Positions 14,581-16,057 of a DNA stretch of 64,000 nucleotides are shown in pieces. The notes under the pieces were generated by a model. That model made no database searches, had not been told where the DNA came from, and saw only the letters and a list, made by a program, of their open reading frames with translations. Position 1 is the first letter of the stretch, and every line of letters begins with the position of its first letter. The translations under genes and the position numbers were made by a program. Origin of the DNA: an uncultured Candidatus Saccharibacteria bacterium (GTDB lineage Bacteria; Patescibacteriota; Minisyncoccia; Phycocordibacterales; SBAW01); the NCBI GenBank assembly GCA_964615415.1, contig CAZTNI010000002.1:4873-68872 (forward strand). Reading direction: 5' to 3'.

Positions 14581-14649
14581 ATTTCGCCACCTGGCGATCA
14601 TGGTGGGCAAAAGAAAATACCGCCCGAAGGCGGCACTTTCTTTTACCCA

Positions 14650-14721
14650 TGACCTCACGGGGAATCGAACCCCGATTTACGCCGTGAAAGGGCGCTGTCC
14701 TAACCGTTAGACGATGAGGCC
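14650..14721 (-). tRNA. tRNA-Glu (anticodon TTC)
   Basis: Anticodon loop CTTTCAC; T-arm GGGGTTCGATTCCCC; acceptor GGCCTCA/TGAGGTC. Confidence 0.8.
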
Positions 14722-14772
14722 GTAGACACAAATATAGCCTAAAACTTGAAAAAATGGTACTTTGTGTCAATT

Positions 14773-14900
14773 GGAGAGATGGCTGAGTGGATCAAAGACA
14801 AACTGCTTTGTCTTTGATCCAGTGCCTGTGGCAAGCGCCGTTGTGAGCTTGCGAACAGGCGCTCGGTGGGCGAACTGGTTCGAACACCCAGTCCTCTCCA
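14773..14900 (+). ncRNA. aberrant tRNA-Ser-like element (128 nt) with a 28-nt palindromic insertion
   Basis: The first 18 nt are identical to the downstream tRNA-Ser (GGAGAGATGGCTGAGTGG). The acceptor 3' strand (CCTCTCC) and a T-arm-like stem (ACTGG/CCAGT) are present. The D-loop carries a perfect 12-bp hairpin, ATCAAAGACAAA-CTGC-TTTGTCTTTGAT, and the anticodon region is expanded. Confidence 0.35.
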
Positions 14901-14919
14901 GTACAGATACAAAGTATCT

Positions 14920-15009
14920 GGAGAGATGGCTGAGTGGTCGAAGGCACCGCACTCGAAATGCGGCGTACCCGAAAGGGTACCGTGAGTTCGAATCTCACTC
15001 TCTCCGCCA
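14920..15009 (+). tRNA. tRNA-Ser (anticodon CGA)
   Basis: 90 nt with CCA; anticodon loop CTCGAAA; long variable arm GTACCCGAAAGGGTACC. Confidence 0.9.
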
Positions 15010-15127
15010 GATGCGGCGCAGAAGCTGCTTTTTTAATACTCCTGTTCACCAAAAATTAATACCAAAGGTGGTCAAATGGATCGGTGTCGACAATGATTTA
15101 GTAGACATAACCGAATTCGCATCCATT

Positions 15128-15364
15128 ATGAAAACAGCAGCAAAAATTATGAGTGTTCCGCTCACGTGGGCGGTCCTTGGTGCCTCAGCAGCGCTTGCGC
15201 AAACAAGTACTACCACTATGGGAACAACTACAACACCAGGTGTACCGAACACCGGCGCAGGAGGCGATTTGCTCACCAATGTGCTCCTGCTTGGCATTTC
15301 AGCGGCAGCTGTAGTGGCAGGCATCGTGTATTTGGTTCGCATGCGTGCAACCCCAGCTGAATAA
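15128..15364 (+). CDS. minimal sortase substrate: signal peptide + Thr-rich 16-aa mature segment + VPNTG sorting signal
   Basis: MKTAAKIMSVPLTWAVLGASAALAQ signal peptide, TSTTTMGTTTTPGVPNTG, then a hydrophobic stretch and an RMR basic tail (classic cell-wall sorting signal). No good Shine-Dalgarno sequence. Confidence 0.5.
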   Translation: MKTAAKIMSVPLTWAVLGASAALAQTSTTTMGTTTTPGVPNTGAGGDLLTNVLLLGISAAAVVAGIVYLVRMRATPAE

Positions 15365-15376
15365 TATAGATCGACA

Positions 15377-16057
15377 GTGACTAGCGGATGCCTCAAGCGG
15401 CATCCGCTATTCATACTGTCTTTCGAATTGTCTCGTTACTGTATGTATATGGAGGAACGTATGCGACGCTACACACTAGTAGGTGCACTCACGTTGGTTG
15501 CAGCGTGTGTGTTTGTTGGCACGGTAGTGCGTGCAGTTTTTTATGCGCCCGATGCAGAGAGTCCGGTGCTTATGGAAGAGGTGTCGTCTGCGAGAGGAAT
15601 TGGCGTACCGACGCGCCTGCACATCCCGGCTGCGGGAGTTGATGCTTCGGTACAGCGAACAGGTATTACGACAAAAGGAGCCATGGCAGTTCCAAGTAAT
15701 TACGCTGATGTGGGGTGGTATAGGTATGGTACTCGACCAGGAGAAAAAGGGAGTGCGGTTATCTCAGGCCATCTTAATAACGGTTTTGGGCTCGATGGAG
15801 TGTTTGCAGATCTGTCGCGATTGAAACGGGGAGACGAAATTTTTGTTGAAACAGATCGTGGCGAGGAGATGCGGTTTGTTGTAGTAGAGGTGGAGACATA
15901 TCCATACACAGAGGTGCCTACAGAATTTCTGTTTAATAGGAAGGATGTTCCGCGACTCAATCTTATTACGTGCGACGGTGCATGGGTGGGGAGTGAAAAA
16001 ACTTACGATCGTCGGCTTGTGGTCTATGCTGAGTTTAGGGAAGCGGATCAAATATAG
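15377..16057 (+). CDS. sortase (transpeptidase)
   Basis: N-terminal TM anchor; catalytic His in AVISGH, Cys in LNLITCDG (TLxTC), Arg in YDRRLVVYAE. The start is probably the internal Met at about 15449. Confidence 0.8.
   Translation: MTSGCLKRHPLFILSFELSRYCMYMEERMRRYTLVGALTLVAACVFVGTVVRAVFYAPDAESPVLMEEVSSARGIGVPTRLHIPAAGVDASVQRTGITTKGAMAVPSNYADVGWYRYGTRPGEKGSAVISGHLNNGFGLDGVFADLSRLKRGDEIFVETDRGEEMRFVVVEVETYPYTEVPTEFLFNRKDVPRLNLITCDGAWVGSEKTYDRRLVVYAEFREADQI

Follow-up and report, generated by a model that had tools for sequence, protein, structure and literature searches.

Transfer-messenger RNA (tmRNA) and the YrlA/Y-RNA-like RNAs contain tRNA-like modules, and archaeal tRNAs can carry multiple introns. 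The tRNA introns known from Patescibacteria are, to our knowledge, far longer than 25-28 nt. The tRNAOther gene of Bacillus cereus is a stand-alone gene with a recognisable cloverleaf. It is described as a functional pseudo-tRNA and adjoins a genomic island (PMC3399842). In Escherichia coli, a tRNA 3' external transcribed spacer sponges RyhB and RybB (Lalaouna et al. 2015, cited in PMC9514646). Patescibacteria are rich in tRNA introns, which are of the self-splicing group I type and lie in the anticodon loop (PMC13011429). Here we analysed a 64,000-nt stretch of contig CAZTNI010000002.1 from an uncultured Candidatus Saccharibacteria bacterium (hereafter the window), in which a hairpin-rich element of 128 nt (14773-14900, plus strand) lies just upstream of an intact tRNA-Ser(CGA) gene. 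The element is real and derived from a tRNA but is not itself a tRNA, it is confined to one small lineage, and it is most likely a relic that forms a structured leader.

A first, sequence-only reading of the locus had described two copies of one 18-nt sequence, a 12-bp palindrome in the D-loop, an expanded anticodon region, a T-arm-like stem-loop, an acceptor 3' strand pairing at 6 of 7 positions, a 7-bp hairpin between the two copies and a normal tRNA-Ser(CGA) at the second copy, and each of these was found. The shared sequence, GGAGAGATGGCTGAGTGG, stands at 14773-14790 and 14920-14937 and reaches 19 nt when the preceding T is counted. Allowing up to 3 mismatches adds no further copy in the window, and 0 of 100 shuffles gave two matches. 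The first copy comprises the acceptor 5' strand and the 5' half of the D-arm, with GG at the G18/G19 position. The palindrome ATCAAAGACAAA-CTGC-TTTGTCTTTGAT (14791-14818) has 12 perfect base pairs as claimed, and it is actually longer. It forms the core of hairpin 1 (14788-14821), in which 14788-14802 pairs with 14807-14821 in 15 perfect Watson-Crick pairs around the loop CTGC. No other copy of the palindrome occurs within the window at up to 3 mismatches. The expanded anticodon region is 25 nt long between CCTGT (14825-14829) and ACAGG (14855-14859), and this insert itself folds into the 6-bp stem GCAAGC/GCTTGC with a 10-nt loop. In the minimum free energy (MFE) structure, hairpin 2 (14821-14863) stands in place of the anticodon arm, with AGTGCCTGT/ACAGGCGCT around GCAAGC-GCCGTTGTGA-GCTTGC.

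The 3' part of the element also resembles a tRNA. The T-arm-like hairpin ACTGG-TTCGAACAC-CCAGT (14874-14892), with its GTTCGAA motif and 9-nt loop, directly abuts CCTCTCC (14893-14899), a mimic of an acceptor 3' strand. This strand pairs with 14773-14779, leaving an A.C mismatch (7:66) as the seventh position, so that GGAGAG/CTCTCC closes the element. The A at 14900 occupies the discriminator position and is not followed by CCA. An AT-rich spacer of 19 nt (14901-14919) separates the element from the tRNA gene, and the local hairpin CAGATAC-AAA-GTATCTG spans 14904-14920. As an alternative, CCTCTCCAG(TAC) of the spacer pairs with (GTAT)CTGGAGAGA of the tRNA 5' end.

The predicted folding energy of the whole element is -70.8 kcal/mol (z = -8.15), and 0 of 200 shuffles were equally stable. 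The plus strand is more stable than its complement (-70.8 versus -61.1 kcal/mol). The predicted MFE structure is a four-way junction in which GGCTG (14781-14785) pairs with CAGTC (14889-14893), breaking the T-arm. A cloverleaf-like fold reaches -51.5 kcal/mol compared with -69.1 kcal/mol for the MFE structure, which makes it 17.6 kcal/mol less stable in a nearest-neighbour model that does not include tertiary contacts. The sequence from 14722 to 15040 is identical, base for base, in L019, an independent Logan assembly, indicating that the element is not an artefact of one assembly.

The element is not a tRNA. At the second copy (14920-15009), ARAGORN and Rfam agree on a functional tRNA-Ser(CGA) with an encoded CCA, which scores 57.8 bits in Rfam. 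A covariance model of the clade's tRNA-Ser (R1), built from eleven tRNA-Ser genes, gives this tRNA 111.1 bits and the neighbouring tRNA-Glu 27.7 bits, and matches the element in hairpin-sized pieces of at most 5 bits. ARAGORN called no tRNA in the element at default stringency, with the intron option or after in-silico deletion of the palindrome, and it called no tmRNA. At the 80% threshold its calls were inconsistent, with 'Thr(tgt)' for the intact element and 'Arg(gcg)' after the deletion. A search of 14700-15060 against Rfam release 15 at E <= 10 returned chance-level matches on the element, with no tRNA, group I intron or ribozyme family among them. On these ARAGORN, Rfam and R1 results, a functional tRNA, with or without introns, was rejected.

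The structural details agree with these searches. The element lacks a 7-nt anticodon loop on a 5-bp stem, its T-loop has 9 nt instead of 7, and pair 7:66 is A.C. Its discriminator position holds A, where G73 is present in 11 of 11 aligned tRNA-Ser genes of the clade, and its 3' end continues with GTA instead of CCA. The missing CCA is not decisive by itself because most tRNA genes of the window encode none; those that do are 4 of 13 (Phe, Val, Ser-CGA and Leu-TAA), so the organism needs a CCA-adding enzyme. The earlier proposal of a tRNA gene disrupted by a tiny palindromic insertion therefore stands as far as the tRNA derivation is concerned, but the palindrome is not the sole lesion, because the 25-nt stem-loop, the 9-nt T-loop, the A.C pair at 7:66, the A discriminator and the missing CCA come in addition. 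The proposal of a tRNA with a non-canonical intron was not supported, as ARAGORN made no call with the intron option at default stringency and Rfam gave no match at E <= 10. By inspection, bulge-helix-bulge geometry (3-nt bulge, 4-bp helix, 3-nt bulge) was not seen at the inserts of 28 and 25 nt. The element lies outside tRNAs, intron-bearing tRNAs, tmRNA and other Rfam families, and dispersed palindromic repeats, for each of which one defining feature was sought and found to be absent (for the repeats, a second copy in the window or the related loci).

As a duplication relic should, the element adjoins a presumed parent tRNA gene, shares with it the exact 19-nt repeat and carries the GTTCGAA T-loop motif abutting CCTCTCC. 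Of the 48 tRNA genes in all sequences analysed, tRNA-Ser(CGA) alone has both of its acceptor strands copied upstream, and it has them in the window, in L019 and in L022. In all relatives but L017, tRNA-Ser(CGA) has CCTCTCC as its acceptor 3' strand, and the window's own tRNA is a further exception. The window tRNA has the derived pair A7:T66, while the relatives listed all have G7 and, except L017, C66. The repeat in the element carries the derived A7 like the window tRNA, but the 3' strand has the ancestral C. This combination suggests a recent homogenisation of the 19-nt 5' segment between the leader and the tRNA. A donor other than tRNA-Ser(CGA) was considered and rejected, since local alignment of the interior with the 13 window tRNAs and with tRNA-Ser(GGA) of L015 recovered the generic T-loop motif and nothing else. 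The most economical history is that tRNA-Ser was duplicated in tandem in a common ancestor of the window lineage and that of L022. Of the two copies, the one lying upstream would have kept the ancestral promoter context and would later have lost its tRNA function.

The sequence upstream of the element bears on its position in the transcript. A promoter-like bipartite block on the plus strand (14735-14763) consists of TAGCCT, 14 nt and TGGTACTTT, or, in an alternative parse, has a 17-nt spacer followed by TACTTT. The block belongs to TATAGCCTAAA-N5-AAAAAATGGTACTTTGT (14731-14765) and ends 9 nt before the element. This motif is identical in L017 (Nomurabacteria), L022 and L024-L028, where it lies between divergent tRNA-Glu(TTC) and tRNA-Ser(CGA) genes, and it is conserved across Paceibacteria. 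It is unchanged though the DAO proteins of L017 and L022, the two relatives in which this was measured, are 46-79% identical to that of the window. In the window, tRNA-Glu(TTC) (14650-14721, minus strand) is likewise divergent, and it is the conserved partner of tRNA-Ser(CGA) in the clade. A scan with the sigma-70 consensus did not call the block. From its conservation and position we take the block to be a putative promoter, in which case the element would be the first thing transcribed. In relatives without the element, tRNA-Ser(CGA) starts 9-28 nt after the block (9-10 nt in L025, L026 and L028). Because the element starts where the tRNA starts in these relatives, we interpret it as a leader at the 5' end of the tRNA-Ser(CGA) transcript. 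Downstream of it come the 19-nt spacer, the intact tRNA gene and, at 15013-15034, the terminator-like hairpin GCGGCGCAGAAGCTGC with its run of TTTTTT. On the reverse strand of the block, TATATT lies 9 nt before tRNA-Glu, and TATAGCCTAAA-N5-AAAAAATGGTACTTTGT is probably a pair of overlapping divergent tRNA promoters.

We compared nine related loci that contain a tRNA-Ser(CGA), namely L017, L021, L022, L023 and L024-L028. A genome scan based on the DAO gene gave at least 18 loci, and L017 alone among the matches listed has kept the Glu/Ser pair. L021-L023 were found through DAO homologues in a protein database, and L024-L028 through a scan of JGI metagenomes for the promoter pattern, which gave at least 5 loci, none with a long leader among the matches listed. 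A route through the sortase gene yielded no further syntenic loci among the matches listed, and a 195-aa neighbour gene in L022 proved to be an orphan and gave no further relatives. The element is missing from 8 of the 9 loci (L017, L021, L023 and L024-L028), so that the leader comparison rests on two sequences, those of the window and L022. The element is restricted to the window lineage and this one relative. By the identity of the DAO oxidoreductase, the four closest genomes are roughly equidistant (74-79%), with the window pairing with L022 and L021 with L023.

Two of the loci that lack the element differ from the window in other ways. In L021 (5601-5762) and L023 (2480-2753), tRNA-Ser(CGA) is inverted relative to the window and stands in tandem with tRNA-Glu, Ser to Glu, without a leader and behind a similar AAAAAATGGTATTTT motif; the inverted gene indicates a local inversion around the tRNA pair. 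L024 has a 21-nt insert, GGAGAAGTGTTCTCC-ATTAAC (1156-1176), between the block and tRNA-Ser(CGA). It includes a miniature acceptor-stem mimic of 15 nt, GGAGAA-GTG-TTCTCC, where the long leaders start, and this miniature may be an independent event or a collapsed relic.

The counterpart in L022 is a 112-nt insert at the same place, which starts with GGAGAGG and ends with CCTCTCC. About 8-9 nt into this insert starts a perfect 12-bp hairpin, ATGAAATATGCA-CTGC-TGCATATTTCAT, and three more hairpins are present beyond it. The insert is also very stable (z = -5.1), and its plus strand folds at -46.5 kcal/mol compared with -43.4 kcal/mol for the complement. The motifs GGCTGAGTGG and GTTCGAA of the D- and T-arms were not found in it, and it matches R1 in hairpin-sized pieces of at most 4 bits. 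A leader with the same closure and hairpin but without the D- and T-arm motifs fits a decaying duplicate.

Hairpin 1 has the same length and loop in the two genomes. Seven of its 12 pairs are identical, and in the other five both bases differ while the pairing is kept. When the structure is used to set the alignment register, 11 of 16 independent positions agree, which corresponds to p ~0.006 in our own binomial estimate. At fourfold synonymous sites of the DAO gene, identity between the window and L022 is 24%, compared with a random expectation of 27%; because these sites are saturated, neutral sequence should be fully randomised between the two genomes. The leader interiors show no significant similarity (173 of 2000 shuffles score as high, p ~0.09), and their branch patterns differ. 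Beyond hairpin 1 and the closing stem, homology of the two leaders was not demonstrated. Conservation of a CCGTT..AGCTTGCGAA block was considered and rejected, as the interior similarity is non-significant. The possibility of a plain duplicated pseudogene without conservation, which the sequence-only reading had left to comparative genomics, is neither fully borne out nor fully dismissed.

On balance we lean towards seeing the element as what is left of a tandem tRNA-Ser duplicate, which has ceased to encode a tRNA and makes up a structured leader at the 5' end of the tRNA-Ser(CGA) transcript. Transcription would start at about 14771-14773, and the leader would fold on itself co-transcriptionally into the closed four-way junction. 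The closed junction would sequester CCUCUCC, which could otherwise pair with GGAGAG of the tRNA 5' strand. A cut by RNase P at 14919/14920 would then yield two products, the mature 5' end of the tRNA and a leader of about 147 nt that begins with a base-paired 5' end. The leader probably acts in cis, if it has any function, for example by shielding the folding of the tRNA from the leader or as a processing signal; it may also have no function at all.

Several points weigh against this view. The start of transcription, the co-transcription and the release by RNase P are inferred, not observed. The T-stem of the element, ACTGG/CCAGT, shares nothing with GTGAG/CTCAC of tRNA-Ser(CGA) or with the other tRNAs examined, which means that the duplication is old or that the donor was a different gene. 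All 12 pairs of hairpin 1 have been kept, with no mismatch or wobble in either genome, and both leaders persist as very stable structures despite the saturated synonymous sites; the retention of perfect stems counts against a neutral relic. The full precursor also prefers a swapped pairing, in which the leader 3' strand pairs with the tRNA 5' strand (-115.1 versus -106.0 kcal/mol). Since this pairing is favoured in the thermodynamic model, the harmless nature of the leader is an assumption. RNA-level selection for the closed fold, a trans or switch function, and a DNA-level palindrome process are the candidate explanations for the perfect hairpins.

The element may instead be a functional tRNA-derived small RNA, in line with the regulatory RNA that the sequence-only reading had proposed, kept by selection and freed by RNase P, although we consider this unlikely. 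Such an RNA would act in trans, for example through an exposed CCGUU-containing loop, or would serve as a switch in which alternative pairing of the duplicated acceptor strands controls the maturation of tRNA-Ser(CGA). The persistence in two lineages with saturated synonymous sites, the five compensated pairs in a hairpin 1 of constant length and loop without a mismatch, the extreme stability of both leaders, the better folding of the plus strand in both the window and L022 and the predicted alternative pairing of leader and tRNA are all consistent with this explanation, and functional pseudo-tRNAs (PMC3399842) and tRNA spacer-derived RNAs (Lalaouna et al. 2015, as cited in PMC9514646) provide precedents. 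However, there are two occurrences only, and the element is missing from the close relatives L021 and L023 as well as from the six loci that are more distant. Beyond hairpin 1 and the closing stem, conservation is lacking in both sequence and structure, and L022 does not have the tRNA-like motifs seen in the window copy. The tRNA spacers of L022 and L023 contain further hairpin-rich insertions, and hairpin richness may be a mutational property of the locus. We regard a selected tRNA-derived RNA domain, either as a cis switch or as a stable small RNA released by RNase P, as doubtful. In the cis-switch version, the leader 5' repeat, its 3' complement and the 5' and 3' strands of the tRNA could form two alternative sets of pairs that exclude each other, which would gate maturation of tRNA-Ser(CGA). 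In the small-RNA version, the conserved 12-bp/CUGC hairpin could be a recognition site for a protein or an RNase.

The perfect stems may also have arisen at the DNA level, from a small mobile hairpin element or from template-switch (inverted-duplication) events that leave hairpins without RNA function. An insertion in or beside the tRNA gene would in this case have duplicated the tRNA 5' end, by 19 nt in the window and 10 nt in L022. The main stems are all perfectly Watson-Crick paired with no G.U in hairpin 1 of either genome. Of the five double changes in this hairpin, three are transversion pairs, for which no wobble intermediate is possible. In both genomes the palindrome begins immediately behind the direct repeat (after nt 18 in the window and nt 8 in L022), and more perfect hairpins are found in the L022 and L023 spacers. 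We nevertheless judge this origin improbable, because neither the 64-kb window nor some 0.5 Mb from related loci contains a second copy of the palindrome or of any part of the insert, and because a scan of viral contigs (IMG/VR) gave 15 matches that were AT-rich chance hits and not palindromes. No terminal inverted repeats were recognised; the insert is flanked by direct repeats, which measure 19 nt in the window and 10 nt in L022. The insert itself contains the T-arm-like hairpin and the acceptor 3' strand, which indicates a tRNA origin rather than a foreign element. A repeated or mobile palindrome of the repetitive extragenic palindrome (REP) or miniature inverted-repeat transposable element (MITE) kind was rejected, as there are no dispersed copies in the window, the related loci or IMG/VR. 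A working tRNA from which the D-loop and anticodon-loop inserts are removed as non-canonical introns is very unlikely and has been largely refuted. With the palindrome deleted and the threshold set to 80%, ARAGORN does draw a cloverleaf with a 20-nt 'intron', and Patescibacteria are rich in tRNA introns (PMC13011429). Those introns, however, belong to the self-splicing group I type and interrupt the anticodon loop (PMC13011429); Rfam finds no such match here, and no bulge-helix-bulge motif was seen. ARAGORN stays silent at default stringency whether or not its intron option is set. Removing both inserts still leaves a T-loop of 9 nt, the A.C pair, A as the discriminator and no CCA, and the L022 homologue cannot be converted to a tRNA. 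We give hardly any credence to an assembly artefact in the form of a chimeric join or a collapsed repeat at the tRNA gene. The contig L020 (Logan SRR14271365), from a second assembly of this population, does end inside the second repeat, at window position 14927 and 7 nt into the functional tRNA, a break for which low coverage or difficulties in the assembly graph around the repeat or palindrome may be responsible. The identity of 14722-15040 in L019 and the analogous architecture in the unrelated JGI sample L022 argue against this explanation.

Other palindromic and non-coding sequences are found around the tRNA genes of the clade. In L022, a hairpin-rich insertion of 110 nt (1820-1932) lies between tRNA-Glu and the block and contains several perfect hairpins of 6-9 bp (z = -5.7). 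In L023, a 111-nt insertion (2570-2680) lies between tRNA-Ser and tRNA-Glu, where L021 has 1 nt. These insertions suggest that tRNA spacers in the clade readily gain palindromic sequence. In four relatives (L022, 2003-2150; L023, 2754-2900; L021, 5763-5905; L028, 4133-4275), tRNA-Glu(TTC) is immediately followed by a non-coding block of about 145 nt, which was not found in the window. It is 83-94% identical among the four, while fourfold sites are already saturated for the similarly distant window and L022. The structure predicted by RNAalifold comprises two long hairpins and a terminator-like one, GCGCA-CTGC-TGCGC, which is flanked by A and T runs. Compensatory changes are seen in nine pairs, and the presence of invariant G-U pairs points to the tRNA-Glu strand. 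An Rfam search of this block gave no match, and we consider it a candidate for an unannotated non-coding RNA.

In the window, an imperfect inverted repeat (14604-14649) lies directly downstream of tRNA-Glu. Its 21-nt arms are 86% complementary, with A- and T-runs on both sides, and it is probably a bidirectional terminator between an upstream small open reading frame and tRNA-Glu. Directly downstream of tRNA-Ser(CGA), a gene for a secreted protein of 78 aa (15128-15361) encodes a C-terminal PNTGA-type sorting signal and a hydrophobic tail. A sortase gene follows at 15461-16057; the sources of its homologues name class F, and the pair of genes is kept in L021 and L023.

If the element is only a relic, it is an example of how a duplicated tRNA gene decays in a streamlined genome of the Candidate Phyla Radiation (CPR). 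It also calls for caution in annotation, as tRNA-like fragments upstream of real tRNAs may be leaders and not genes. If hairpin 1 and the closing stem are truly selected, the element would be a rare example from bacteria of a duplicated tRNA put to new use, as a structured leader or small RNA attached to its own paralogue, and a selected domain would amount to an undescribed re-use of a duplicated tRNA in genome-reduced CPR bacteria.

Among the known systems, the element is filed under tRNA pseudogenes or pseudo-tRNAs, and it is unusual there in being the proposed 5' leader of its own paralogue and in having one helix kept by compensatory change. Like bacterial tRNA pseudogenes and degenerate tandem duplicates, it adjoins its presumed parent, shares with it the 5' end, the T-loop motif and the acceptor strands, and has lost its score with tRNA models. 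Unlike them, its lost parts are replaced by perfect hairpins instead of random decay, and it lies between a putative promoter and the functional copy, which would make it the leader of that copy; one of its hairpins is kept by compensatory change in a second lineage. It resembles tRNAOther of Bacillus cereus (PMC3399842) in being a tRNA-derived gene that does not function in translation, but it fails all tRNA models, is proposed to be a leader and is known here from sequence alone. Like the RNAs from transcribed spacers covered in PMC9514646, the leader would be a by-product of tRNA precursor processing that could persist as an RNA of its own, and the promoter-like block and the terminator-like hairpin are placed compatibly with such an origin. 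In contrast to these, it would be a 5' and not a 3' spacer, it is tRNA-derived and far more structured, and its release by RNase P is the step we infer. The intron-containing tRNAs of CPR genomes (PMC13011429) likewise have extra sequence in a tRNA-like frame, here in the D-loop and anticodon regions, whereas the inserts of the element are 28 and 25 nt long with no group I core or bulge-helix-bulge, and its exons make no valid tRNA. With tmRNA and the YrlA/Y-RNA-like RNAs the element shares an acceptor-like stem and a T-arm-like hairpin in a non-decoding RNA. It differs from them in having no tmRNA or Rfam match and in its T-arm, which lies outside the predicted fold and is absent from the L022 homologue.

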